In this document: positions 2,642 to 59,288 of the stretch, piece by piece
Layout: each line of letters starts with the position of its first letter
How positions within the stretch are numbered: position 1 is the stretch's first letter
Source of the DNA: a virus
DNA: 64,000 bases
Reading direction: 5' to 3' (one strand)
IMG/VR virus record: IMGVR_UViG_3300045988_055014
Location: 1-64,000 of that record
Notes under the pieces: generated by a model
What the model was told of the DNA's origin: nothing
What the model saw: only the letters and a program-made list of their open reading frames with translations
Databases searched by the model: none
Position numbers and translations under genes: made by a program

Positions 2642-3625
2642 TCAGCCTTTTTTAATTTGTTTAAATACTACTTTTTGTTCTTCAGCATTTGCAGTATTAG
2701 TTTCAATTAAGTTACCATATTGAAGTTCATTCTCAAATTCTAATATACATGGTTCTCCATCTCTTACTTTTAAGAAATGCATATAAACCTTATTTTTTAC
2801 AGGTAGACGTCTTACACCATAGATAGCTAGATTTAAGATTTCTGGGCGATGAACTGCTATTACGAAATCACTTGCTTGAAATATTGCATCAGATGCTGAT
2901 AAATCACTTCTCATAGGGAAGTGAGTACTTGGATTATTAATTCTATCAGGACTTTCAATATTTCGATTCATCTGTGAAAGCTGTATTATACTAGTATTAG
3001 AAAGTTTTTTCTTCTGTATAAACATTTTCTGTAAATCGACTATTGTACTTCTTTCTCCACCTTCTCCATTTACTAGAAGAACATGGTCTAATATTACTAT
3101 TAGCCAACGACCGTTAGCTACAGTATTATGAAAGTAATCTATAGTATTACCTATTTCTTCTACATTACATACTTTATCAACAAAGTATATATTGTACTTC
3201 TTAATGGTTTCAGCTGCCGATTCAGCTTTTAATAAGTCTTCATCACTAAGTGTATCTATTGAACTATATAATTCAGATACAGTTTTCTTAGTTTTATTAC
3301 TTATTACACGACCAACATTTCTGTAGTCTACCATTTCTAAACTAAAGTATAATACTACGATATCCTGATCAGGATTAAGATCAATTAAATCCATTACTAA
3401 CATATTTGCAACTGAGCTCTTTCCGCTGCCTGATATACCAGCTATAGTAAATATCATATTAGGTTCAATTCCGCCAGTAGCTTTATTGAATTTATCCCAT
3501 CTAGTTTTTAGAGATACTATACTATGATTTTTTCTAGCTTTAATGTAGTTTATGGATTTATTAGCTACCTGAGATATTGACTCAAAAGGTAGTATTTTAA
3601 CGGCATTCTGTTCCGTATTCTCCAT
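2642..3625 (-). CDS. DnaB-like replicative helicase (RecA-fold core)
   Basis: Walker A GISGSGKSS, Walker B-like LIVILDHVLLV, and a SQMNR motif typical of DnaB-family C-terminal domains. Confidence 0.6.
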   Translation of the reverse strand: MENTEQNAVKILPFESISQVANKSINYIKARKNHSIVSLKTRWDKFNKATGGIEPNMIFTIAGISGSGKSSVANMLVMDLIDLNPDQDIVVLYFSLEMVDYRNVGRVISNKTKKTVSELYSSIDTLSDEDLLKAESAAETIKKYNIYFVDKVCNVEEIGNTIDYFHNTVANGRWLIVILDHVLLVNGEGGERSTIVDLQKMFIQKKKLSNTSIIQLSQMNRNIESPDRINNPSTHFPMRSDLSASDAIFQASDFVIAVHRPEILNLAIYGVRRLPVKNKVYMHFLKVRDGEPCILEFENELQYGNLIETNTANAEEQKVVFKQIKKG

Positions 3626-4169
3626 AACTTACAGGTGTTTCAGTTTCATAACTCATTTGCTCTTCAATAACCTCCCACTCATGTTGAGTGAGCCATTTCC
3701 ACATCGTCTTCATATAACCAATTTTACCAGTTATCATTTTGTTTTCAATTTCAAATTGAAGACATTGAAGAAGGTGTTCATGCATTGCTTTAGACTTGCC
3801 AACAATACGATTATATTCTTTACGACACTTGTTTATATTAGCTCGTAAAAAACCTTTAGTACCATCTGGTCTCATAACATACACTGGAAATACTTCATAG
3901 AACTCATCAAACCATGTCTTGTCTTGTTTTACACTTGATAATAGTTTTTCTGTAGGACTATAAATTTTATTATCTCCTGAAGTAGTAAAGGAGATAAGGT
4001 CATTGTCGATTAACTCTTGTATGTCGTTTTCACTTATTCGGCTGAGAAACTTGTGAACGTCTTGATTATTACTTTGATTATCATTCAACACAAGAGTTAA
4101 AAATACTAACTGATTAATTGATATTTCTCCAAAAATATCTAATAATGTTGTATCTAATTCTAGTATCAT
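3597..4169 (-). CDS. hypothetical protein (possible helicase partner)
   Basis: 190-aa ORF overlapping the helicase start by 29 nt. No motif recognised. Confidence 0.5.
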   Translation of the reverse strand: MILELDTTLLDIFGEISINQLVFLTLVLNDNQSNNQDVHKFLSRISENDIQELIDNDLISFTTSGDNKIYSPTEKLLSSVKQDKTWFDEFYEVFPVYVMRPDGTKGFLRANINKCRKEYNRIVGKSKAMHEHLLQCLQFEIENKMITGKIGYMKTMWKWLTQHEWEVIEEQMSYETETPVSYGEYGTECR

Positions 4170-5352: not shown

Positions 5353-6298
5353 CTTTATGCTGACTATATCTTAATTTGGCATTTCGTCCATACATAACCA
5401 TACATGCTAGGTTTTTCACCTGAACATACAGCATATATATTATGTACTTTGTAATTAGGATTTTCTTTTATAATATCTTTAACTCTATTCCATTCCTTTA
5501 TGAATACACCTTCTTTAGTATATTGCTTAATAGTGTATTTAGTTAAAGCTTTAGATACTTTATTTGCCATTATATTTTTAGTATTTGGATTTTCTTTCCA
5601 AAATTTAGAAGATTTTTCTCCTATTTTCTTACGTTCTTCTAAGTTTTTAAATCTATTTTTCTGAGCTTCAGAATATCTATTTTTAGTTTCTTGTAAGGGT
5701 ATCATTCCTAATATTGAATGATCTCTTCTAAGATTATATCCTTTTTCTCTATTAATAGTATCTAAACTTGTTATATAATGGTACTCTTTATCTTTTAAGT
5801 TTTCTGTAGTATATTCTAATACTTTATAATCAAAAGCATCGGAACCATATTTATTCCAATCTTCTATAAAGTACTTATTATCTTGTTTAAATTTGTTATT
5901 TTTTAAATAAGATTTATGTGCATTTATCCTAGAATAAATATCTTTACTACATCCTATATACTGCTTTCCGTTTACAGTACAGATTATACTGTAAATACCT
6001 GATTTTTTCCAATCTATACGTCTTCCTTTCATAATGTTCTTTTTTATTTTTAAACGTATATATGGATAATAGGTTGCCAAATTCCTCACGTTTCGTACAA
6101 AATGTACTACGTCTTCACAGACTAGTCGATGAACACATATCCAAAGTGGATACTTCGCTGCGGATTACACCTTTACTATGATTTTACAATCCGATAAGCG
6201 TTATCTTATCTGCTACACAATCTATTACTAGTTGCTGCTGTTATAGTAAAGTTTAAACGCTTTCCCGCAATTAGTGAGGTTACGACGCTGCATCACTT
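5353..6298 (-). mobile_element. group I intron (946 nt) carrying a GIY-YIG homing endonuclease ORF
   Basis: Interrupts PolB motif A. Exon 1 ends in U (6299) and the intron ends in G (5353). P1: exon CGACGU (6304-6299) pairs with intron GCGUCG (6288-6283), with U.G at the splice site. P10: intron GAUGCA (6294-6289) pairs with exon 2 UGCAUC (5352-5347). Confidence 0.75.
5364..6032 (-). CDS. GIY-YIG homing endonuclease (intron-encoded)
   Basis: GIYSIICTVNGKQYIGCS...R..H motif. ATG at 6032 (the track ORF starts at an upstream GTG, 6089). Ends with TAG at 5364-5366. Confidence 0.8.
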   Translation of the reverse strand: MKGRRIDWKKSGIYSIICTVNGKQYIGCSKDIYSRINAHKSYLKNNKFKQDNKYFIEDWNKYGSDAFDYKVLEYTTENLKDKEYHYITSLDTINREKGYNLRRDHSILGMIPLQETKNRYSEAQKNRFKNLEERKKIGEKSSKFWKENPNTKNIMANKVSKALTKYTIKQYTKEGVFIKEWNRVKDIIKENPNYKVHNIYAVCSGEKPSMYGYVWTKCQIKI

Positions 6299-18575: not shown

Positions 18576-18648
18576 TTCACGGAGTGGGACTCGAACCCAC
18601 ACTCTTAGGCATTGTCTGCTTGTGTCTAACCAATTGCACGATCCGTGA
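18576..18648 (-). ncRNA. tRNA-like element with a non-canonical anticodon arm
   Basis: 73 nt. Perfect 7-bp acceptor TCACGGA/TCCGTGA (U1:A72) and a canonical T-arm GTGGG-TTCGAGT-CCCAC. The D-loop AATTGGTTA is normal. The central arm folds only as AAGCA-GACAA-TGCCT (5-nt loop, one A.C mismatch, no U33), so no anticodon can be assigned. Confidence 0.5.
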
Positions 18649-18904
18649 CCCTTAGTTTTATATTCTATATCAAAGAATACTTTGAGGCGACTGTCACTAT
18701 TTCTAGCGTTCTAGCCTATTTCACAACCCCGTCAAGAATAACCGCTTCTCTTTAAATAAAGAGTTGATAAACTAGGATTACGGTATTACTCCCCTAGAGA
18801 TTATCACGCACTCAGGCGAGTATAATCTGTTACAAAATGTTTGTCATTTCTGACGTTTATTGACCTATTCATTTTCATCCTCGCTGTCAAAACCATAATG
18901 CCCC
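18649..18904 (-). ncRNA. ssrA: tmRNA-like, coding piece (5' acceptor strand + tag frame) of a permuted gene
   Basis: The minus strand from 18904 reads GGGGCATTATGGTTTTGACAGCGAGG, matching the tmRNA 5' consensus GGGGnnn..GGnUUnGAC. A candidate tag frame ...DYTRLSA ends in tandem stops TGA-TAA (18806-18801). The 3' end is placed at the abutting tRNA-like element and is uncertain. Confidence 0.6.
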
Positions 18905-19045
18905 AATGTGCCGTTATACGCTACGGTCAAACGGCAGCTAACGGTTCTTTGCTGCAACCGTGCGGGACACTCCGTTATTGGACTAGTTATATGTACACGT
19001 ACATTTTTAGTTTGTTCCAACTGTTTTATTCAACCGCAAAGGGCG

Positions 19046-19100
19046 TGGAGCATGAGGGAGTCGAACCCTCGTCCAAACGATTCATCCAATGACCTAACAG
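19046..19100 (-). ncRNA. ssrA: tmRNA-like, acceptor piece (T-arm + 3' acceptor strand) of a permuted gene
   Basis: Minus strand reads ...TCGTTTGGAC-GAGGG-TTCGACT-CCCTC-ATGCTCC-A (19080-19046). ATGCTCC pairs 7/7 with GGGGCAT at 18904-18898, including G3:U70. It lies UPSTREAM of the 5' half, separated by a 141-nt intervening segment (19045-18905). Confidence 0.65.
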
Positions 19101-19466
19101 TCAATATACTTTTATTTCTATAGGATTATCTCCAAAACACATATTTCTTTTATCAAATGGTACATAATGAGTACATAAGAATCCTGCATCATTAAATAGT
19201 TTAGCTGTACCTATTGGTACACTAATAGAATTATTATGTTTTAGATCTATCCACCAACTTCTTTTTGTTGTTTCATGAACATATCTAACAGGTTTATTAT
19301 AGAATAGATGTTCACCCCACATATCTGCTGCAATATAGCTCATGATAAATAATTTTAAGTTGTAAATATAAAGAGCTTTGCACACCTCTGCGCCTTCATA
19401 TCCTGGCAGATTGGATAACGCCTCAATTAGAGAGATATACATCATACACGAGTTTTCATATATCAT
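19101..19466 (-). CDS. hypothetical protein
   Basis: The track ORF starts at TTG 19487. The first ATG is at 19466. The stop TGA 19103-19101 directly abuts the tmRNA acceptor piece. Confidence 0.45.
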   Translation of the reverse strand: MIYENSCMMYISLIEALSNLPGYEGAEVCKALYIYNLKLFIMSYIAADMWGEHLFYNKPVRYVHETTKRSWWIDLKHNNSISVPIGTAKLFNDAGFLCTHYVPFDKRNMCFGDNPIEIKVY

Positions 19467-19572
19467 TGGGTTGATATAATAGTGCAATATACTCTTTTAG
19501 TAGTATAGAAAGCGATCAAACTCTCTATACTTAATATGTAATTCTAAAGTAATAGTACATACTGTTGATTAT

Positions 19573-20620: not shown

Positions 20621-20813
20621 AATAATAAAGAAATAGAAAGTTATACTATCTATTCGTACGCCTTATTTGATAGCTAGCCCTTTTCCTTCTCCTGACCTTA
20701 AATAAGGTTGACCGTTGTATAGTCCGTAGGTATTAATCACCTTTAGGGGTCTGGCGTTATAACCTTCTTTGTTGATTGGATTCTATCATAACTACTTAAT
20801 TAGTAATTCTTAA

Positions 20814-21619: not shown

Positions 21620-22099
21620 TCTTACATATTTAATAGTTTTAATTATACAACATTTTGAGGACGTCCAGCTGCAACTGGAAGGTTTTATCAATCTTAATTA
21701 TATATTAACACACGTTTTTACTATACGCTTACAGTAAATGAAGAAATTAATACGTAATTTATACAACATATTGCAGTATATTGCAGGCTTGACGATTCAC
21801 ATAGTTGTTCGGCTTCTACACCAATACAGCTTAATTGAAATACTAATTAAAAATGACTCTCACTTAGTTTTAACTCATAAGCAGATATAGCTGTCAAACT
21901 AATCTTATTGGAGTACATGGTTTTAACGTCTGCACTAATACTAATCTCCGCCACCTACCTTCAAACGGCATTTGAACTACTGTTCTCCTGTCATCTGACC
22001 CGATTAGATATAAGCCCCACATGTTTGTCACTGATTCTCACAGTAAGGAGGCAGCTGCATCTATTCTCACGAACCAATACAGCTTTGTCTGATTTAATT

Positions 22100-29998: not shown

Positions 29999-30322
29999 AT
30001 GGAACAGTTTAATATTACAATTACACCTGTAAGTGCATCAGGAGTTGGAAATTTCATTGAAGTTCGTATTGATGGAATGTTGTATAGAACGGAGATTGTA
30101 CAAGGTGAATTTACTGAAGATGTAATGAAACAATCTATGGAAAAATTAATGCCTACCATTCCTGCTGAACAACAAGAATCTGTAGAATTGAAATTCTATC
30201 AATTGTTAGATGCTATTGCAAATACTAAAGCTGAAGAGGAATATAGAGCAGCTCATCCAGAAGAGTTTATGCCAGAGAATTTTGAACCTAGTGTTGAAGA
30301 AGTAACTGATGAAACTATTTGA
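29999..30322 (+). CDS. hypothetical acidic protein
   Basis: 107-aa ORF ending in TGA. Confidence 0.5.
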   Translation: MEQFNITITPVSASGVGNFIEVRIDGMLYRTEIVQGEFTEDVMKQSMEKLMPTIPAEQQESVELKFYQLLDAIANTKAEEEYRAAHPEEFMPENFEPSVEEVTDETI

Positions 30323-30836
30323 TATAAACAGTGGTAAAGTAGTAATACATCCAGATGCTTTAGGTCTCCCATTCTTTAAAAAACTATGGGAGGCTGATAA
30401 GCCTGATAAACAACAAGCCACAAATGTAATAAGCTACATAGTATTAATGTGGTACTTTAAATCTCCATATGTACTTCAATTAGAACCAGATATTAGGGAG
30501 AAAAAGCTCAAATAGTTATACTTTAACGATGAAAATTATAAGCTTACTGTAGAGGAAAAAGCTTGTGAAGATGATTACAAAAAGCTGATATATACTAGGA
30601 ATCTTAGAATGTTAGATAGTATGAGAAATAAAGTAGATACTATTAGTAAATACTACGAAGATTCTCTAGAAGAACAGTTAGATGAAAAGAAAATTAAAGA
30701 TCTATTGGCTGGTATGGAAAAGGTAAAAGCTACTTTTCAGACATTAGATTTCCTCGAAAAAGCAGTTAAAGCTGAAGAAGTTAGTACTACTAAAGTACGT
30801 GGAGATGCTCAGATTAATCCTTATGAATTAGCTTAA
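30309..30836 (+). CDS. hypothetical protein (possible small terminase); first gene needing TAG readthrough
   Basis: Track ORFs 30309..30515 and 30609..30836 are in the same frame, joined through a single TAG (30513-30515). 175 aa, located upstream of TerL. The TerS role is a guess from position. Confidence 0.5.
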
Positions 30837-30887
30837 TTTGTGCAAATTATACACAAGTTTATAACAATAAATTAATGAGTACGTTAT

Positions 30888-31127
30888 ATGAATATAAATA
30901 AAGAAACTATGAAGAAAGTACTTGATTTAACAAAATGCAATAGCACTGAAGAAATTTGTGATGTGCTTGAAAAAGAAATTGATAACAAACGAAAAGCAGA
31001 TGCTTATCTTAAAGAAGCCGGTGAATCTTTGGTTGAAGAATATAAGAAAGAAGCAGTAGCTGAACCTAAGAAGAAAGGTATTATCAAGCGTACTATTCAT
31101 TGGCTAAAGAGTTTGTTTAAGAAATAA
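30888..31127 (+). CDS. hypothetical small protein
   Basis: 79-aa Lys/Glu-rich ORF. Confidence 0.5.
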   Translation: MNINKETMKKVLDLTKCNSTEEICDVLEKEIDNKRKADAYLKEAGESLVEEYKKEAVAEPKKKGIIKRTIHWLKSLFKK

Positions 31128-31184
31128 TCTCGTTGAACTGATAGAGAGGTCTGACAGGGACAGACATTAAATATTCCCTGGCAC

Positions 31185-31257
31185 TGGAGCGTAACGTAAT
31201 GGTAGCGTCGCCGGCTCTAACCCGGTATGTGTGTGGGTTCGAATCCTACCGTTCCAA
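31185..31257 (+). tRNA. suppressor tRNA, anticodon CUA (reads UAG); Gln-like
   Basis: TGGAGCG-TA-ACGT-AATGGTA-GCGT-C-GCCGG-CTCTAAC-CCGGT-ATGTGT-GTGGG-TTCGAAT-CCTAC-CGTTCCA-A. All stems pair. The anticodon loop has U33, CUA at 31217-31219 and A37. U1:A72, G2:C71 and G3:C70 match bacterial tRNA-Gln. Confidence 0.85.
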
Positions 31258-31273
31258 CTAATTAAAATTAATA

Positions 31274-32203
31274 ATGACGTATAGAGATATAGATCCAAAA
31301 CTAGCTGGAATTTACTTATTTAAAAACAATATAAATGGTAAATGTTATATTGGTCAAGGAGTATCTATAAGAAAAAGACTCAAACATCATCTTAGCAATA
31401 TTAGAAATAAACGATACGATTTACCATTATATAGAGCTATAGAAAAATACGGATTACATAACTTTACTATAGATATAGTAGAATCTTTTATACCCGACGA
31501 ATCAATTACTACAGAACAGTTAATAAATAAATTAGACGATTTAGAAATAAAATACATAGAGCAATATGAAGGGTATACTAAAGGATATAATTGTACTAAA
31601 GGTGGAGACTTTGGTGTTCTTGGTTTGAAGATGACAGAAGAACAAAGAAAGAAAGTTTCTGAAAATACTAAGAAATTAATACGAGATGGAATTATAGGAA
31701 AACGAGTATATATGTACAATTTTATAGATAAGTATTATATATATGCGCATACTATAAAAGCCGCATCTACAATAACTGGTCTAAGCGGATCAAATATAAG
31801 TAAATTATGTAATAATAAATATATACATCCTTTCTGTAACAATTTTATTGCTGACTTTTCTAAAGAAGAATTAGAGAAGAAAAAAGACAAAATATACAGT
31901 TTGTGGAAAGAATATGAAACTAATAGACATTGCAATTCTGACTGGTATAAAGGTATGCCTGGTTTAAATAAAGGAAAAAAGATGTCAGAAATACAAAAAG
32001 AGAAGTTAAGAAATTCTTCTACAAAATATTTTGTTTATCAATATAGCAAAAATGGAGAATTATTAAATACATTTAAAGGTATGCATAATGCTGCAAAAGC
32101 AGTAAATACGGATTATAATTCTATTAAAAGAGCTTGTAATGGTAAAGCTAAAACATGTAAAGGATTTACTTGGAAGAAAGAATTGATACAATCTACTTGT
32201 TGA
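31274..32203 (+). CDS. GIY-YIG homing endonuclease (free-standing)
   Basis: GIYLFKNNINGKCYIGQGVSIRKRLKHH. C-terminal repeated DNA-binding modules. No in-frame TAG. Sits between the suppressor tRNA and TerL. Confidence 0.8.
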   Translation: MTYRDIDPKLAGIYLFKNNINGKCYIGQGVSIRKRLKHHLSNIRNKRYDLPLYRAIEKYGLHNFTIDIVESFIPDESITTEQLINKLDDLEIKYIEQYEGYTKGYNCTKGGDFGVLGLKMTEEQRKKVSENTKKLIRDGIIGKRVYMYNFIDKYYIYAHTIKAASTITGLSGSNISKLCNNKYIHPFCNNFIADFSKEELEKKKDKIYSLWKEYETNRHCNSDWYKGMPGLNKGKKMSEIQKEKLRNSSTKYFVYQYSKNGELLNTFKGMHNAAKAVNTDYNSIKRACNGKAKTCKGFTWKKELIQSTC

Positions 32204-32226
32204 CATGTTAAACATATTAAGAAACT

Positions 32227-34287
32227 ATGATTGACTTCTAGAAGAAAATTAAAAATTCTGATAAATTTAGAGAACCAGCTCTGTAGTTTTTAACTACAGG
32301 GCGTTATTGTTTATATCCAGCTGGTTCGTCAGAATACTTTCAATACTGGGACGAACAGAAAGATCGTTGCATTAATGGTTATACCGCAGAGGATGGAGAT
32401 TACATCACTGGGTATAACTATTTTTATATTAACTTTTGTCCAATGCAACGTATAGTTAATATTGTTACTAAACTGCCTAATGGAGAAACTAAAGTAAAAA
32501 GAGACAGTGTAGTAACATTTCCAGACTTTTACGATTATGACTATTTTTACTTCTAGGCAGTATAGGAAGCAGAAGATAAAGGTAAACACATATGTTTACT
32601 TAAATCTCGTCGTAAAGGCTATAGCTATAAAGGTGGTGCAATGGCGTGTCGCAATTACTATTTGATACCTAATAGTAAAACATACATATATGCATCTAAT
32701 AAACAGTATCTTACGGAAGATGGTATCCTTACTAAAGCTTGGGACTATATGGACTTTATAGATAAGAATACAGCTTGGGGTAAGAAACGATCTGTTAACA
32801 GTACTATGCGTAAACGAGCTGGATTCTGGACTAAAGATGAATTTGGCAATGAAGTAGAAATGGGTTATAAGTCAGAGATTATTGGTGTTACTTTGAAAGA
32901 TAATCCTGATGTAGTACGTGGTAAACGTGCTAAATTAATTCTATTTGAAGAAGGAGGTTCATTCTCAGAATTAGGTGCTGCGTGGCAAATTGCTAGACCA
33001 TCTGTAGAACAAGACGGTGTAGCGTTTGGTACTATGATTGTATGGGGAACTGGTGGTGACAAAGGCTCTGCATTTGAAACTATGAAAGATATGTTCTATA
33101 ATCCAGGTGGATACAATTGTTTAGGATTTGAGAACATATGGGATAGTACACCTACAGATAAATTGTGTGGATTCTTTGTTCCATAGTATACTAATCTAGA
33201 TACTAGAGATGATGATGGTAATAGAATATACATGGATGATGATGGTAATACTATTACTAAACCTTCTCTTGAATTTATATTAGATGAACGTAGAAAGGTA
33301 ATAAGTACAGCTACTAATACTACTGCTATAGACCGTTATGTTGCAGAGCGTCCTATTACTCCATAGGAAGCAATGTTAGAATTTAATGGTAATATATTTC
33401 CTAAAAAAGAATTACAAGAACAATTAGGACTTATTCGTACTAATACTTAGTTATAGAATCATAAACAAGTAGGTGATTTAATATTTGATGAAGCTGGTAA
33501 TATTAAATGGATACCTAAGAAACATGGCGATGTTACTAAATATCCATTAGGTAAAGATGATGATCCTACTGGTTCAATAGTTATATGGGAACATCCTGCT
33601 AAAGACGCTACTATTGGATTATATATAATAGGTGTAGACCCTTACGATCATGATCAATCTGGTACTAATTCGTTAGGATCATCTATAGTATATAAAAGGT
33701 TTTAGAACTTTGAAGAGTACTATGATATTATAGTAGCAGAATACACCGGTAGACCTGCAACAGCTGAAGAATACTATGAAAACTTACGTAAGTTGGCATT
33801 ATACTATAATGCACGTATAATGTATGAAAATGAACGCAAAGGTCTATTCCCTTACTTTACTGCTAAGCATTGTGATTACTTATTAGCTGATCAACCTGAT
33901 ATTATTAATGATATAGTTAGTAATTCTAAAGTACAAAGAAGAAAAGGTTGTCACATGAATAAGTAGATAAAGCAATGGGGTGAAGGTATGATAAAAGAAT
34001 GGTTGAATGAAGAGTATGCACCAGGTAAGAAAAACCTAACTAGGATACTATCAGAGCCGCTATTAGAAGAGCTAATAAGCTATAACGATACAGGTAACTT
34101 TGACCGAGTGATGGCGTTGATGTAGGTTATGATATATAGAGAACAACTATATAATGTAGTTGTTAAAAAGAAAGAAAAAGAAAATAAATAGAAGATGCTC
34201 TTTGATGGACCAATTTTTGCGCAGAGTTGGTTCAATGACGATACTCCAAGAGTATTTTCAAACGACGATAATGTATATACATTTTAA
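32227..34287 (+). CDS. terL: terminase large subunit (TAG read as sense)
   Basis: ATG 32227. Frame 1 stays open to TAA 34285-34287 through 12 in-frame TAG (my count), with no TAA or TGA. Motifs LKSRRKGYSYKGG, KLILFEEGG (Walker B-like) and LYIIGVDPYDHD (nuclease Asp motif). Track ORF 32641..33186 is one fragment of it. Confidence 0.85.
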
Positions 34288-34289
34288 TT

Positions 34290-36815
34290 ATGAAGAATAC
34301 TAAAAGTTTCCCTGCACAGAAACTACCAATGTCAAAGAAGACACAAGCCTGGAAAGAAGCCTGCGTAGACTATGTAGTAGGCGCTGGAGATTCAGGATTT
34401 GGTGGTAATGGTAGATCTAGATCTGACGAGATGTAGACTTACTATGATTTATATAATAGCATATATAATGAAAAGGATCTTAAATATGTAACTAATCCAT
34501 TTAAACAAGATGATGGATTTCCTGCTATGGCATAGGATTATAATATCATCAAACCATATGTAGATCAGTTACTTGGTGAAGAAACTAAGAGACCTTTTAA
34601 TTTTCATCCACAACGTACAAGTGATATAGCTGCTAGTGAACTACAGGAAAAAGCCAAAGAAATGCTAATGGATTATATTCAGGCTACTATAGCTAGTAAG
34701 TTAAGTCCAGAACAAGCAGCTAGATATGAACAAGCATTAGCTACAGGAGAAATCTAGACTCCAGAAGCTATAGCTAAGTATCTATAGAAAGATTATAAAG
34801 ATATAGCAGAAACTGAAGCTTATCACGCATTACAATTTCTAAAGAGAAAATTGAATCTTACTCATGAGTTTTATAAAGGTTGGAAAGATGCTTTAATAGG
34901 TGGAGAAGAAATATACTATGTAGGTGTAATCAATGGAGATCCTTATGTAGAAAGAGTAAACCCTATGTACTTTGATTATGAGCATTCTTTAGACTTAGAA
35001 TTCATAGATGATGCCGCATGGTGTCGTAGAAAGATGATTATGTCTGCTACTGAGATATACGATAGATTCTATGATAAAATGTCTGAAAGACAACTAAATG
35101 AATTATTAGAACTTATTGATCAAAAACCAGGAGCAGGCAATAATCCAGAAATAAGGAAGACAAGTATGGATTATGAATCTATTAAGTTACATAAGATTAA
35201 CAGTTTCACAGATAATCCATTTGATATAGATCATATAACAGTATATCATTGCTGTTGGAAATCTTTTAAGAAAATAGGTTTTGTTACTTTACTAAACCCA
35301 GAAACTGGAGAATACGAAGAATTTCAAGTAGATGAAGATTATAAAGTAACAGGTACAGAATATTCTGTAGAATGGGACTGGATCATTGAGGTATGGGAAG
35401 GATATAGAATAGGTGATGATATGTACATAGGTATTCAACCTATTGAATATCAACATATATCTGCTGATAATCCTAATTCATAGAAATTACCTTATACTGG
35501 TGTAGTATATAATAATACTAATAGTAAACCAAGATCATTAGTAAGCATGATGAAGCCATTACAATATATGTATATCGTAGTATGGTATAGATTGGAATTA
35601 GCTTTATCTAGAGATAAAGGTAAAGTAGCCGTAATGGACATCACTTAGATACCTAAATCAATGAATATTGATGTGAATAAATGGATGCATTACTTAAGTG
35701 CACTTGGTGTAGCATTTATTAATCCTTATGATGAGGGTTGGGATATACCTGGGCGTGAGGGTGGTAAACCATCACAGTTTAACTAGTTGTCCTCTTGGGA
35801 TTTAACTATGAGCAATGTTATAGCTGAATATATTCAATTAATGCAGAAGATTGAAGATATGGTAGCTAAACTTACTGGTATTACTCCACAAAGACAGGGA
35901 CAAGTTGCTGCTAGTGAATTAGTAGGTAATACTAATGTTGCAGTTAATATGTCTTATCACATTACAGAACCTTGGTTTTGGAATCACAATTAGGTAAAAA
36001 GGAGAGTTCTAACAATGCTGTTAAACACTTCTAAAGCTGCTTGGAAAGACAGTAAAAGATATCTAAGTTATGTGTTAGATGATGCTACTAGAGCGTTCAT
36101 ACAATTATCTGATAACTTCTTTTATGAAGATATGGATATATTTGTAGATGATAGTACTAAGAATCAACAATATATAGATCAGTTAAAACAATTGTTACAG
36201 CCAGCTATGCAAAATGGAGCAAGTCTATTAGATGTTGCAGAAATTATCACTTTAGATAATGTAAGTATGATTAAGAATAGACTTGAAGAAATAGAGCAGA
36301 AAAGGATAGAACAAATGCAATAGCAACAACAAGCTGAACAACAAGCACAGCAGTAGATAGCTGAACAACAGAATTAGCTTAAAGAAGAAGAGCTTATGCT
36401 TAAGGAAGCTGAACTGGATCTTGAAAAATATAAAGTAGATCAAGACAAATATAAAACAGATCAAGACAACGCTACTAAAATTACTGTAGCACAAATTAAT
36501 GCTTATCGTGGTGCTGAGAATATGGATCAAGATATGAATGGCATTCCTGATCCAATTGAAATAGGAAAACAAGCATTAGAATAGTAGAAGATAAATTCTG
36601 ATATTGCTACTAAACAATTAGAACTTAACAATAAGCGTAGAGAAATAGAGCAGAAGAGAGAAGCTGAAAATAAGAAGATACAGCTTGAAAAAGATAGAAT
36701 GAAGCATGAAACTGAATTACAACGTATGTCTGATAAAGCTGCTATGGATAGAGAGAAGCTAAAGGCAAAGACAGCTTTGAGAAATAAAGTAGTAGGCGAA
36801 TCTAAATCTAAATAA
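34290..36815 (+). CDS. portal protein (TAG read as sense)
   Basis: ATG 34290. Frame 3 stays open to TAA 36813-36815 through 13 in-frame TAG (my count). It joins track ORFs 34851, 35787, 36015 and 36396. Lies immediately after TerL, about 841 aa, with a Gln/Glu-rich coiled C-terminus. Confidence 0.7.
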
Positions 36816-39894: not shown

Positions 39895-41361
39895 ATGGAT
39901 AATAATATTCTTAATAACCTCCAATTATACAAAGGTAAATGGTTTTCTGATTTGATCGACACTAATAAGATTAGTCTCGCTTCTCAGCAAAGACCTTATG
40001 AGGTATCTACTATCCTGTCATACGTATTTGGTACTAAAGATAATGGTTACAGTACTTCTCTTGATATGTTGACAGGTGGTCTTGGAAATGTAATGACTAT
40101 TGATCAGCCTTCATTTGAATGGGGTGTTATGATTGACCAGGATAGAGCTGTTACAATTCGTGACGCTAAATGGAATGGTGCTGCAATTGATGAAAATTCT
40201 ACTCCAGGTTTGGGTAATACACCTATCACTTTGTGGTTGGAAGATGCATGGTTTGGTCCTGGTGCTACTATCGAATTTGATGATAAGAGTCAGGCACGTA
40301 TTCAGGATGCTCCGTATCAGGATGGTAATCTGTATGTTTATACAGTATTTGTATCTAATGGTAGCCCCGCTTCTTATATTGACCCTGCTGTTTTAGCTTC
40401 TGGTTGCCAAGTAAACCGTTTGGCTTCTGCTTATGAAGAATACAGTGAAGAGGCTGATATCCTGAATTACAATACTCACTTCAAGATGCGTAACTATTTG
40501 ACTACAGTACGTCTGTCTTATGATATCACAGGTTCTGCTTACTCTACAGTTATGGCAGTAGCTTTGAAAGATCCTAAGACTGGTAAAACTTCTTACTTGT
40601 GGTCTACATTCCAGGAATGGGTTGCAATGCGTGAGTGGTACAAACGTCTTGAAAGAGCTTTGGTATACAATCAGAACAATGTAAACAAAGATGGTTCTTG
40701 TAATCTGAAAGGTAAGAATGGTCGTCCTGCATTTATTGGTGCTGGTTTGTTGGAACAGATTGCTCCGTCTAACAGACGTTATTATACTCGTTTGACAGCT
40801 GAACTGTTGGAAGACTTCTTGTTTGACCTGTCTTACAATGTATTAGGTACTAATGAACGTAAGTTTGTTGCCTTGACTGGTGAAATGGGTATGCGTGAAT
40901 TTGACCGTGTACTTAAAGAAAAGATGGCTAACATGAACTTGATTGACACAGTATTCGTAACTGGTTCTGGTGATAATTTGAAGTTCGGTGGTCAGTTTAA
41001 GACTTACGCAATGTCTAATGGTATTGAATTGACTTTGAAGTATTTCCCGTTGTATGACAATACTACTTACAATCGTCAGTTGCATCCTGTTACTTTGAAA
41101 CCGTTGGAATCTTACCGTATGACATTCTTGGATTTAGGTCGTCGTGATGGTGAAGCTAATATTGTTAAAGTAGTTCGTAAAGATCGTGAATTCGTTAACT
41201 GGTGTACAGCTGGTTCTGTAACTCCTGCTGGTTACGCTCACTCTAATACAGAAGTTCGTTCTAATGCTAAGGATGGTTACTCAGTACACTTCTTAGGTGA
41301 GGTAGGATTGATGTTGAAAGATCCTCGGGCGTGTGGGGAGCTAATCATGATGGCAGAATAA
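39895..41361 (+). CDS. major capsid protein
   Basis: 488 aa, follows the scaffold-like gene, no in-frame TAG. Markedly different codon choice (CGT/GGT/CTG-rich, higher GC), consistent with very high expression. The family call rests on size, position and recollection only. Confidence 0.7.
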   Translation: MDNNILNNLQLYKGKWFSDLIDTNKISLASQQRPYEVSTILSYVFGTKDNGYSTSLDMLTGGLGNVMTIDQPSFEWGVMIDQDRAVTIRDAKWNGAAIDENSTPGLGNTPITLWLEDAWFGPGATIEFDDKSQARIQDAPYQDGNLYVYTVFVSNGSPASYIDPAVLASGCQVNRLASAYEEYSEEADILNYNTHFKMRNYLTTVRLSYDITGSAYSTVMAVALKDPKTGKTSYLWSTFQEWVAMREWYKRLERALVYNQNNVNKDGSCNLKGKNGRPAFIGAGLLEQIAPSNRRYYTRLTAELLEDFLFDLSYNVLGTNERKFVALTGEMGMREFDRVLKEKMANMNLIDTVFVTGSGDNLKFGGQFKTYAMSNGIELTLKYFPLYDNTTYNRQLHPVTLKPLESYRMTFLDLGRRDGEANIVKVVRKDREFVNWCTAGSVTPAGYAHSNTEVRSNAKDGYSVHFLGEVGLMLKDPRACGELIMMAE

Positions 41362-41459: not shown

Positions 41460-42434
41460 ATGTTAAGTTACGAAGTATATAAGATTACAAATAAAGTAAA
41501 CGGAAAAGTTTATATAGGTATAACTAATAGAGGAGCTGGTGCTAGATTTAAACAGCATCTATTTGAAGCTGAACACGGCTCCTCTTTTAGATTCCATAAC
41601 GCTCTTAGAAAGTATGGAGCAGACGGATTTGATATCAATATCATATCATTCTGTAAAAATGCAGAAGAACTTAAAGAAAGAGAAAAGTTCTTTATAAAAG
41701 AATACGATTCTACAAATCCCGAGAAGGGATACAATATGACAGAAGGTGGAGATGGTACTTTTGGTAGACCTTGTTCTGAAGAAACTAAACAAAAAATAAG
41801 TATAGCTAACTCTGGTAAAACAGCTAGTGAATATACTAGAAAGTTATTATCTGAAGCGGGTAAAGTGCGAACAGAAGGTAGAGATAAGTATTGGAAATCT
41901 GGTAAAATCGGTGAAACTAGAAAAAAACCAGTATTACAATACACTTTAGATGGAGATTATATAACAGAATATAGTGGTGTAAACGAAGCCAGTAGAAAAA
42001 CTGGAATAAGTACTTCATTAATAATATCATCCTTAAAAAGGAAAAGAGTATTAATATCTGAAAGAAACCCATATATATGGTTATATAAAGAAGATTATAA
42101 AGAAATTCCAAGTAAAGTAGATCCATCTTTAGCAGCTATACTACCAGATTGGAAACCACAGATTTCTGATAAATGTAGACAGGCTAACATAGAGTCTAGA
42201 AAAAATAAAGTAAGAACTGCTGAAGAATTAGCTTTAATAAAACAAAGAGCTACAGAAGCATGCGGAAAGAAAGTACTACAATATTCATTAGATGGAAAAT
42301 TGTTAGCAGAGTTTGATAGTATATCCGAAGCTAGTAAAAATACAGGTCAAGATAGAAAAACTATAGCTAATAGTGCTAATGGAAAAACAAAAGTAACTAA
42401 ATCTACCAAGTTTATTTGGAAATACAAAGAATAA
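41460..42434 (+). CDS. GIY-YIG homing endonuclease (free-standing)
   Basis: VYKITNKVNGKVYIGITNRGAGARFKQH...YNMTEGG. Repeated C-terminal NUMOD-like modules. No TAG. Confidence 0.8.
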   Translation: MLSYEVYKITNKVNGKVYIGITNRGAGARFKQHLFEAEHGSSFRFHNALRKYGADGFDINIISFCKNAEELKEREKFFIKEYDSTNPEKGYNMTEGGDGTFGRPCSEETKQKISIANSGKTASEYTRKLLSEAGKVRTEGRDKYWKSGKIGETRKKPVLQYTLDGDYITEYSGVNEASRKTGISTSLIISSLKRKRVLISERNPYIWLYKEDYKEIPSKVDPSLAAILPDWKPQISDKCRQANIESRKNKVRTAEELALIKQRATEACGKKVLQYSLDGKLLAEFDSISEASKNTGQDRKTIANSANGKTKVTKSTKFIWKYKE

Positions 42435-58120: not shown

Positions 58121-58259
58121 TGAAATTGCGTATCATAATATTTTCAGTTTATCATATAATAGCCAACTACTGAGAAGGACCTTACCACTTGGTAAAAAAT
58201 ATAAATAATTTATTAAGGGTTAGTAGTGAAATATCGAAAGCTCTTTGTAATTTCAGACT

Positions 58260-59288
58260 ATGAAGAAATTTAAGAATTTATATTAGAAGATAACAGATTT
58301 AGAAAATATAAAACTAGCTCACCACAATGCTAGAAAGAATAAAACTCACAGAGATGATGTAAAAAAAGTAGATGAAGATATAGAAGGATTTTGTAAGTAG
58401 ATACAAGATATGTTAATCAATCATACTTATAAAACTTCTGAATATTTTACTTTTAAGTTATATGAACCTAAAGAAAGAATAATATTTAAACTACCTTACT
58501 TTCCAGATCGTATAGTACATCACGCCATTATGAATATAATGGAACCTTTGTGGATTAATTAGATGATACCTTAGACTTATAGTTGTATCAAGAAAAGAGG
58601 AATTCACAAAGTTCTTAGGTAGATATAGCATGATCTAAAAGATAGAAAGAATACTAAATACTGTCTTAAAATAGATATTAGAAAGTTTTATCCTTCAGTA
58701 GATCACGATATATTAAAATAGATAATTAGAATAAAAGTATCAGATAGGGAACTATTATAGTTACTAGATGAGATAATAGATTCATCAGATGGAGTACCTA
58801 TTGGTAATTACTTATCTTAGTTCTTTGCTAATCTGTATCTATCTTACTTTGATCATTGGGTTAAAGAAGATAAAAACATAAAGTACTATTATAGATATGC
58901 AGATGATATAGTAATACTTTATAAAGATAAAGAGTCTTTGTAGACATTACTTAGAGATATAAAGTAGTATTTAAAAGATAACTTAAAACTATAGTTAAAG
59001 AATAATTATCAGGTATTCCCAGTAGAAAGTAGAAGTATAGATTTTGTTGGATATAAAATATATCGCAACTTTACTTTAGTTAGAAAAGTATTAAAGAAAA
59101 AATACTGTAAGAAGAATGCCAAACTGAATAAAAGAAGTACTAACTATAAATATTATAGAAGAAAGATGGCTAGTTACATAGGATGGTTTAAACACGCTAA
59201 CTGTTATTCTTTACTTACTAAAACTATTAAACATAAAGAGCTATTAGATTACCTGGATATACGTAAGGGAAATAGAACATACGAATAA
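58260..59288 (+). CDS. DGR-type reverse transcriptase (TAG read as sense)
   Basis: 342 aa through 12 TAG. Motifs PYFPDRIVHHAIMNIMEP, CLKIDIRKFYPSVDH, IGNYLSQFFANLYL and YYRYADDIVIL. Completely fragmented in the standard-code track. Confidence 0.85.

Follow-up and report, generated by a model that had tools for sequence, protein, structure and literature searches.

Reassignment of TAG from stop to glutamine (code 15), together with the suppressor tRNAs that serve it, has been published for crAss-like phages (Yutin et al. 2021; Borges et al. 2021/2022; Peters et al. 2022; PMC7886860; bioRxiv 10.1101/2021.08.26.457843), and metaproteomics has placed glutamine at TAG in two such phages, neither of them the one studied here (PMC9523058). 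Here, we examine a 64,000-nt stretch of viral DNA, which we call the window (IMG/VR virus record IMGVR_UViG_3300045988_055014, positions 1 to 64,000; coordinates are counted from its first letter), and in it a tRNA gene with the anticodon CUA at 31185-31257 on the plus strand. The window has the layout of the published recoded phages and appears to share their reading of TAG as Gln. It is very probable that the gene encodes a tRNA-Gln(CUA) that serves a TAG-recoded crAss-like phage as its amber suppressor, and that this tRNA is charged by the glutaminyl-tRNA synthetase (GlnRS) of a Bacteroidales host and serves the late genes.

Positions 30000-36000 of the window are 94.8% identical to RefSeq NC_055894.1, CrAssphage cr6_1 (Afonbuvirus faecalis; Crassvirales, Suoliviridae), indicating that the window is a strain of this phage. 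The cr6_1 record carries a 100% identical tRNA, annotated as tRNA-Gln and followed by a ‘homing endonuclease’, TerL and portal; the window is a strain-level variant of it, with no essential difference. A CUA tRNA labelled tRNA-Gln also stands before TerL in five Suoliviridae genomes of other genera (cr56_1, cr109_1, cr52_1, cr113_1 and cr53_1). Searched with blastn against phage records, the tRNA matched crAss-like phages only; against E. coli genomes the sole match was a chance one in a tail gene, and no relatedness to E. coli tRNAs was detectable. The tRNA, Gln-type suppression and recoding are thus already annotated and published biology. The RefSeq label ‘tRNA-Gln’ may itself reflect only the assumed code.

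The gene is entered in our feature list as follows.

31185-31257, plus strand: amber suppressor tRNA of the allele family we call type A (ARAGORN; Rfam; identity with the tRNA-Gln of NC_055894.1; acceptor signature).

The gene encodes a canonical cloverleaf of 73 nt (TGGAGCG-TA-ACGT-AATGGTA-GCGT-C-GCCGG-CTCTAAC-CCGGT-ATGTGT-GTGGG-TTCGAAT-CCTAC-CGTTCCA-A). ARAGORN calls it at 31185-31258 with anticodon cta; the accompanying label ‘Pyl’ is simply what that program calls CUA. The Rfam tRNA model RF00005 covers 31185-31257 end to end (model positions 1-71 of 71), scoring 54.5 bits against a gathering threshold of 29 (E 5.7e-9). In all four stems every pair forms, 21 of 21, including four G.U wobbles (G5.U68, U13.G22, G27.U43 and G51.U63). 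There are 7 nt in the D loop and 6 in the variable loop; the 7-nt anticodon loop (C32 U33 C34 U35 A36 A37 C38) combines U33 with a purine at position 37, as in amber suppressors. The acceptor stem opens with U1:A72, G2:C71 and G3:C70. A73 serves as discriminator, and the gene lacks an encoded CCA end (A-CTA). The original prediction, made from the letters and a list of reading frames, had described a fully paired 73-nt cloverleaf with this loop and these acceptor pairs, lying 57 nt after the last middle gene and 16 nt before a GIY-YIG gene that is followed by TerL; ARAGORN, Rfam and the stem pairing bear out the structure, and the spacings proved exact. Thermodynamic folding of the tRNA was not better than that of shuffled sequence (z = -0.94), as is usual for tRNAs; support for the call lies in the covariance model and in conservation. 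Chance can be set aside, because wherever a related phage locus covers the slot, a CUA tRNA, identical or related, fills it. The element is a real phage tRNA.

The E. coli amber suppressor supE (glnV44) is a tRNA-Gln with the anticodon CUA. With supE and with the set of elements that E. coli GlnRS recognizes, the window tRNA shares CUA, U35, A37, the weak U1:A72 pair, G2:C71 and G3:C70. In the anticodon region, A36 replaces G36 as it does in supE, and position 38 is C, not U. The window tRNA further differs from supE in its D arm and variable loop and in having a phage gene of its own, where supE is a mutated gene of the host. Among the relatives, the cr56_1 tRNA shares the acceptor 5′ strand UGGGGUA with supE.

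To place the acceptor signature among cellular tRNAs, we searched one genome per bacterial or archaeal species with the pattern GGTTCGAATCCNNNYRYYCCA, which fixes the T loop and, through the 3′ strand of the acceptor, requires U1:A72, G2:C71 and G3:C70, and retrieved at least 120 loci. Among the 120 matches listed, ARAGORN assigned 117 to Gln (105 UUG, 12 CUG) and 3 to Asn. At 97.5% Gln, these matches mark the three pairs as a strong Gln hallmark. The discriminator in the 117 Gln tRNAs listed was G in 106 and A in 11, and those with A73 include both Bacteroidales present, a Prevotellaceae metagenome-assembled genome (MAG; UBA2738) and an Alistipes MAG. These two tRNAs have U1:A72, G2:C71, G3:C70 and A73 in common with the window tRNA; the Prevotellaceae tRNA-Gln(CUG) also shares its 7-nt D loop, AAUGGUA, and has an A31-C39 mismatch and a U32 that recur in type A variants (for example at L254). 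They differ in having CUG and G10 where the window tRNA has CUA and A10, and overall identity is moderate. A73 thus fits the probable host lineage, Bacteroidales, though not the E. coli rule, and A10 fits neither; the pair A10:U25 is present in the window and in 7 of the 8 type A variants. Across these eight variants U1, a weak 1:72 pair (once a U1-U72 mismatch), G2:C71, G3:C70 and A73 are constant, and pairs 4:69 to 7:66 vary with compensation. A second allele family, exemplified by cr53_1, is 80% identical to a genuine tRNA-Gln(CUG), that of mycobacteriophage Wildcat. From these features, host (Bacteroidales) GlnRS would most likely charge the tRNA by way of the weak U1:A72 pair, G2:C71, G3:C70, A73 and U35.

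The genes that would depend on this tRNA, and those that would not, are arranged in two arms.

1-25400, minus strand: early/replication arm in the standard code, with no in-frame TAG; 6 of its 29 genes terminate at TAG.
32227-63863, plus strand: tRNA-dependent late-gene block, in which 134 of 370 Gln-type codons are TAG; all its genes stop at TAA or TGA.
32227-34287, plus strand: TerL, the first heavily recoded late gene, with 12 in-frame TAG (PHROG terminase large subunit, E 3e-158).
34290-36815, plus strand: portal protein, with 13 in-frame TAG (PHROG and open reading frame (ORF) reading).
39895-41361, plus strand: major capsid protein (Pfam Crass_capsid), with no TAG despite 14 Gln codons.
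41460-42434, plus strand: second GIY-YIG/NUMOD homing endonuclease gene, with no TAG (Pfam, PHROGs).

When TAG is read as a sense codon, the ORFs of 150 codons or more add up to 16342 codons instead of 9797, and the gain lies entirely on the plus strand downstream of 32.2 kb. Besides the TAG codons of TerL and portal, there are 21 in a 1537-aa protein and 14 in a 1271-aa protein. The fraction of Gln-type codons is equal between the late (0.039) and early (0.035) genes only when TAG is counted.

We then compared orthologous codons across 80 related IMG/VR loci, gathered through the capsid protein, whose gene is free of TAG (81-100% identity). Over 61 TAG sites of the window, spread across five late genes, the relatives have TAG 1577 times, CAA 449, CAG 311, AAT 109 and GAA 89 times; CAA and CAG together (760) exceed the next codon (109) about seven-fold, and while kinship among the genomes inflates these counts, a per-site version agrees. 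At 51 of the 61 sites at least one relative has Gln. In the reverse direction, TAG in the relatives faces CAA 363 times and CAG 223 times in the window. Scored by substitution-profile log-likelihood, Q fits best (-598) and E second (-670). The original prediction that UAG is read as Gln is thus supported from three sides, by the codon substitutions at the 61 TAG sites, by the acceptor signature and by the RefSeq label, and the comparisons make UAG = Gln a well-supported assignment for this phage. The charged tRNA would decode at least 134 in-frame UAG codons as Gln in late structural, packaging and lysis genes; the early replication arm keeps the standard code, with UAG still a stop.

Several observations weigh against this interpretation. 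The G10 and G73 that belong to the E. coli GlnRS identity set are absent from the window tRNA (A10, A73), so that the earlier claim of GlnRS identity elements holds for U1:A72, G2:C71 and G3:C70, only part of that set. The comparison with Bacteroidales tRNA-Gln has n = 2 among the matches listed. A strict pattern of the D arm and anticodon stem, with anticodons that do not start with C, found no cellular ancestor in the genomes of 185,579 species, and the closest cellular tRNA among the matches listed is an Asn tRNA, 70% identical. The codon analysis draws on related, non-independent genomes, and the mass-spectrometry support comes from other crAss-like phages (PMC9523058). We did not use nearest-neighbor similarity as an isotype test, as it does not discriminate (the top match among those listed being this same Asn tRNA). 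A search of viral contigs with the anticodon arm, tried as a clue to origin, matched unrelated suppressor tRNAs of other phages and was uninformative.

These departures leave some room for a tRNA that inserts another residue at UAG (Glu, Lys, Trp or Tyr, for instance), these being other single-base neighbors of TAG or common outcomes of mischarged CUA suppressors. Such a reading would account for A10 and A73, for the non-Gln codons that face TAG (AAT 109, GAA 89) and for the cr113_1 CUA tRNA, which has a long variable arm and an un-Gln-like shape yet is labelled tRNA-Gln. We consider it very unlikely. Gln codons outnumber the next codon about seven-fold and Q leads in likelihood by about 71 log units; 97.5% of the tRNAs with the acceptor signature are Gln (117 of the 120 matches listed), and A73 is as in Bacteroidales tRNA-Gln. 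The short variable loop of the type A tRNA excludes the shapes of bacterial Tyr, Ser and Leu tRNAs, and Gln has been found by metaproteomics in other crAss-like phages (PMC9523058). Reading of UAG as Gln by the window tRNA remains our preferred interpretation.

Within the recoded arm, TAG makes up 36% of Gln-type codons, and we observed that both GIY-YIG genes (31274-32203 and 41460-42434), the capsid gene and an HNH gene of the relatives are free of it; the endonuclease and capsid genes would be translatable without a suppressor. In the early arm, the six genes that stop at TAG (at 5364, 7453, 12530, 22293, 23395 and 24572, all on the minus strand) have their next in-frame TAA or TGA 3-48 codons on, and the presence of the suppressor would give these six proteins short C-terminal extensions. 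A scan of ten early-arm ORFs for release factors and synthetases found none; the only products recognized were a DnaB-like helicase and an AAA_24 ATPase.

In contrast to the sequences on either side of it, the tRNA body has been replaced among close relatives. Loci that encode a 98-100% identical capsid protein hold at least four very different CUA tRNAs in the slot, here called types A (the window's), B (TGCCCTATGGTGTAGTGG...), C (TCCCCTGTAGTATATG...) and D (TCTCCTGTGATGTAAAGG...). Identity to the window is 88-98% over the 60 nt ahead of the tRNA and 85-96% in TerL, and taken over leader, trailer and TerL it spans 85-99%, against 49-60% in the tRNA itself; examples of swapped slots are L020 2385-2456, L015 3009-3080 and L022 1195-1266. 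The conserved leader reaches to 2-5 nt before base 1 of the tRNA, and the trailer motif C[C/T]AATTAAA begins directly after the discriminator. Above its tRNA threshold, Rfam recognizes types B and D along with three more alleles; for type C and one other allele the call comes from ARAGORN only. All alleles have U1, A73 and a weak or mismatched 1:72 pair (except cr113_1), while G2:C71 and G3:C70 are not in all of them. A CUA tRNA is present in 48 of the 48 related loci that cover the slot, 46 by ARAGORN and two by eye, one of these non-canonical and the other split (cr115_1). The tRNA fills a slot, after the middle genes and ahead of TerL, that is obligatory.

That the anticodon is kept while the body around it is replaced argues strongly that the tRNA is functional. 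Published surveys do report recoded phages without a detectable suppressor tRNA (PMC7886860; bioRxiv 10.1101/2021.08.26.457843), and one could imagine that the gene is a non-functional passenger or pseudogene, with suppression supplied by the host or by another factor. This is hard to reconcile with a high-scoring canonical cloverleaf, with compensatory changes in its stems, and with CUA in all 48 loci despite replacement of the body. Bacteroidales that use the standard code are not expected to carry amber suppressors, a further count against it. We therefore regard a pseudogene as extremely improbable and retain a functional suppressor.

Two slots in the relatives have unusual contents. In cr115_1 (NC_055898.1), no tRNA is annotated or called, and at about 3290-3700 a CUA tRNA like that of L052 is split after the anticodon-loop letters CTCT by about 330 nt; the insert has a weak match to group I introns (Rfam 21.3 bits, below threshold), and the suppressor tRNA of this phage may contain an intron. 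In cr113_1 (NC_055896.1), the slot CUA tRNA at 3274-3364 measures 91 nt and has a C1:G72 pair and a long variable arm. In shape it is class II, as is typical of Leu, Ser and Tyr tRNAs in bacteria; it falls below the Rfam gathering threshold and carries the RefSeq label tRNA-Gln.

The gene that follows the tRNA in the window recalls a known arrangement in phage T4, where the GIY-YIG enzyme SegB, encoded in a tRNA cluster, recognizes a T-psi-C motif and drives the inheritance of itself and of flanking tRNA genes (PMC2330249). Homologues of SegB are widely associated with tRNAs (PMC13096335).

31274-32203, plus strand: free-standing GIY-YIG/NUMOD1 homing endonuclease, 309 aa, no TAG (Pfam GIY-YIG E 2.4e-7, NUMOD1 E 2.4e-6; PHROG homing endonuclease).

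As with SegB, this is a free-standing GIY-YIG gene beside a tRNA, present in some close relatives and absent from others, whose flanking tRNA is co-inherited. The two enzymes are similar only in the GIY-YIG domain (33% over 84 aa), and the C-terminal part of the window enzyme has NUMOD1; the window gene, moreover, is linked to one suppressor tRNA, which the phage needs for its genetic code, and not to a cluster of accessory tRNAs. As the similarity is at the level of the domain only, we do not claim that the window endonuclease is a SegB orthologue, and T4 phages were absent among the tblastn matches listed for it.

The ATG of the endonuclease gene lies 16 nt downstream of the tRNA, and the two are tightly linked. 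A type A core is present in 27 IMG/VR contigs, and in 26 of the 26 with enough downstream DNA a homologue of the window endonuclease follows about 16 nt after the tRNA. Reciprocally, a CUA tRNA of the type A family stands 15-22 nt upstream in all 22 contigs that encode a relative of the endonuclease (at least 52% identity). The window's endonuclease lineage occupies the slot in 10 of 10 type A loci and in 0 of 41 non-A loci. The pair is kept across genera and subfamilies while both members diverge, the endonuclease having 52-100% amino acid identity and the tRNA changed acceptor and anticodon stems. At one locus (L075), a block of about 1.2 kb comprising the tRNA and the endonuclease is 99-100% identical amid a background of 80-90%, in genomes that are mosaic throughout. 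The type A allele and the GIY-YIG gene are inherited together, as a unit.

The spacer between tRNA and TerL is a hotspot for optional genes, which are inserted just 3′ of the trailer motif. In the relatives it is empty (15-18 nt) or holds a 75-aa ORF, a 173-aa HNH gene, a distant GIY-YIG gene or the window's GIY-YIG gene. The HNH insert, about 696 nt, was seen at L022 (gene at 1455-1976) and at L033, L034, L037 and L045; its 173-aa gene has no TAG and its end overlaps the start of TerL, and it occurs with tRNA types B, C and D. The 75-aa ORF was seen at L017 (2384-2611) and the distant GIY-YIG gene at L010 and L029. Further afield in IMG/VR, including a giant-virus MAG, the loci L269-L275 encode relatives 30-38% identical to the window endonuclease at 0.7-1.6 kb from tRNA clusters on the opposite strand, which suggests that this group of endonucleases is more widely associated with tRNAs.

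How the linkage and the swapping arose can be read in two ways. It is quite possible that they reflect adjacency and pervasive homologous recombination, in which case the endonuclease would not be causal and the alleles would be old, and neutral or adapted to hosts. The gap between tRNA and endonuclease is just 16 nt, strain identity is mosaic over the whole 16 kb compared (84-100% per 400-nt bin), and alleles B, C and D assort freely with the other states of the spacer (no insert, the 75-aa ORF or the HNH gene). Less easily explained in this way are the retention of the pair across genera and subfamilies while both partners diverge, the 99-100% identical block of about 1.2 kb at L075 in its 80-90% background, and the precedent of T4 SegB, an instance of a GIY-YIG enzyme that targets tRNA genes and takes the flanking ones with it (PMC2330249). 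These same observations would be consistent with an endonuclease that drives the replacement of other suppressor alleles by type A. We tentatively envisage a contested, hypervariable suppressor slot in which the type A tRNA and the GIY-YIG gene form a selfish two-gene module that cuts slots holding other alleles and copies itself in. If so, and this we offer with the same reserve, a mobile element would decide which suppressor tRNA enforces the phage code. Host defenses that target tRNAs, or differences among host GlnRS enzymes, may maintain the diversity of alleles. In the papers on recoded crAss-like phages that we searched, we found no mention of tRNA-body replacement within a species or of the tRNA-endonuclease linkage.

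The surroundings of the tRNA bear on where the code changes and on when the suppressor is made.

30309-30836, plus strand: upstream gene with one genuine in-frame TAG (30513-30515), facing CAG 15, TAG 10 and CAA 3 times in relatives.
30888-31127, plus strand: last middle gene (79 aa, ORF), no TAG; it stops 57 nt before the tRNA.
31128-31184, plus strand: conserved 57-nt 5′ leader; relatives keep 88-98% identity here, including those with a replaced tRNA body.
31258-31273, plus strand: 3′ trailer CTAATTAAAATTAATA, whose motif C[C/T]AATTAAA is kept after every tRNA allele.

The tRNA had been predicted to sit at the code boundary, which is approximately right. Heavy recoding starts downstream, at TerL; the boundary is not exactly at the tRNA, because a genuine in-frame TAG already occurs two genes upstream, in the gene at 30309-30836. 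Exceptions occur on the downstream side as well, where both homing endonuclease genes and the major capsid gene lack TAG. The predicted hairpins of the 57-nt leader were not significant against shuffled sequence (z = -0.39), and as neither leader nor tRNA folded better than shuffled sequence, a structured leader or terminator was dropped. Scans near the tRNA for sigma-70-type promoters, intrinsic terminators and Bacteroides-type -33/-7 promoters found nothing above chance, other Bacteroidetes or phage-specific promoters lying outside these scans. In relatives without the endonuclease or another inserted gene, 15-18 nt separate the end of the tRNA from the ATG of TerL. This short gap and the lack of a separating promoter or terminator signal favor co-transcription with the late genes, and the tRNA is probably made from the same transcript as its neighbors.

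Borges et al. have hypothesized that the suppressor tRNA times the translation of late genes (bioRxiv 10.1101/2021.08.26.457843), and the original prediction took a similar view. The pattern of co-transcription does not establish the tRNA as a timer. It may instead be that there is no timer, the tRNA being transcribed with the late genes or just ahead of them and transcription setting the schedule; this is a possibility we hold open, at less than even probability. At about that level, too, we place the other purposes that recoding might have without a timer, namely blocking stray or early translation of late genes, harming host translation, excluding or sensing co-infecting phages, or no purpose beyond drift; alternative rationales of this kind are discussed in the literature (PMC7886860). 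The scans and the 15-18 nt gap in insert-free relatives agree with simple co-transcription; the upstream gene at 30309-30836 already needs suppression, and the most abundant late protein, the capsid, avoids TAG. On the other hand, the absence of signals counts for little where Bacteroidetes- and phage-specific promoters were left out of the scans, and a temporal switch would fit both the concentration of TAG in late genes with its use as a true stop in early genes and the preferential recoding of lysis genes reported by Borges et al. (bioRxiv 10.1101/2021.08.26.457843). A role of the tRNA in timing is putative.

Some further elements of the window and of the related loci were seen in passing. 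On the minus strand at 18713-19135, ARAGORN calls a permuted tmRNA with a tag peptide; within it, 18859-19105 scores 41.5 bits with the permuted-tmRNA model of Rfam, short of the threshold of 47, and both tRNA-like halves, 5′ and 3′, are recognizable. Its neighbor at 18576-18648 on the same strand weakly resembles a tRNA (33.8 bits) and has an irregular anticodon arm. In a phage that recodes a stop codon, a gene resembling tmRNA might have a bearing on ribosome rescue. The non-coding part of the early arm also holds a cluster of strong Rfam matches at 19370-19497, 20634-20779 and 21915-22050, all on the minus strand, to a RAGATH-7-associated RNA (138 bits), RAGATH-9 RNA (122 bits) and the Hatchet ribozyme (93 bits). 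In the late block, an RT-17 RNA motif (58178-58260, plus strand; 44.5 bits) lies directly upstream of a gene for a 342-aa reverse transcriptase (58260-59288, plus strand; Pfam RVT_1, E 3e-21) with 12 in-frame TAG, and the two are probably a diversity-generating retroelement within the recoded late block. TerL, uninterrupted in the window, is broken in relatives (for example L009, L018, L035 and L042; L055 and L058; L007) by inserts of at least 1 kb, presumably introns or inteins, at points that differ across strains (after residue 132, about 245-275, about 281-377, 229 and 629).

Taken together, the codon comparison independently confirms that in this phage lineage TAG behaves like a Gln codon, and the survey of cellular genomes amounts to a large-sample test of U1:A72, G2:C71 and G3:C70 as a Gln hallmark, with A73 matching Bacteroidales. 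What looks out of the ordinary is the variable slot and the tRNA-endonuclease module: the indispensable tRNA of a recoded phage is among the most variable stretches compared, and it adjoins a homing endonuclease hotspot. If the endonuclease does drive allele replacement, selfish DNA would be linked to the upkeep of an alternative genetic code, and the alleles of the slot would then be natural sets of interchangeable amber suppressor tRNAs for Bacteroidales.

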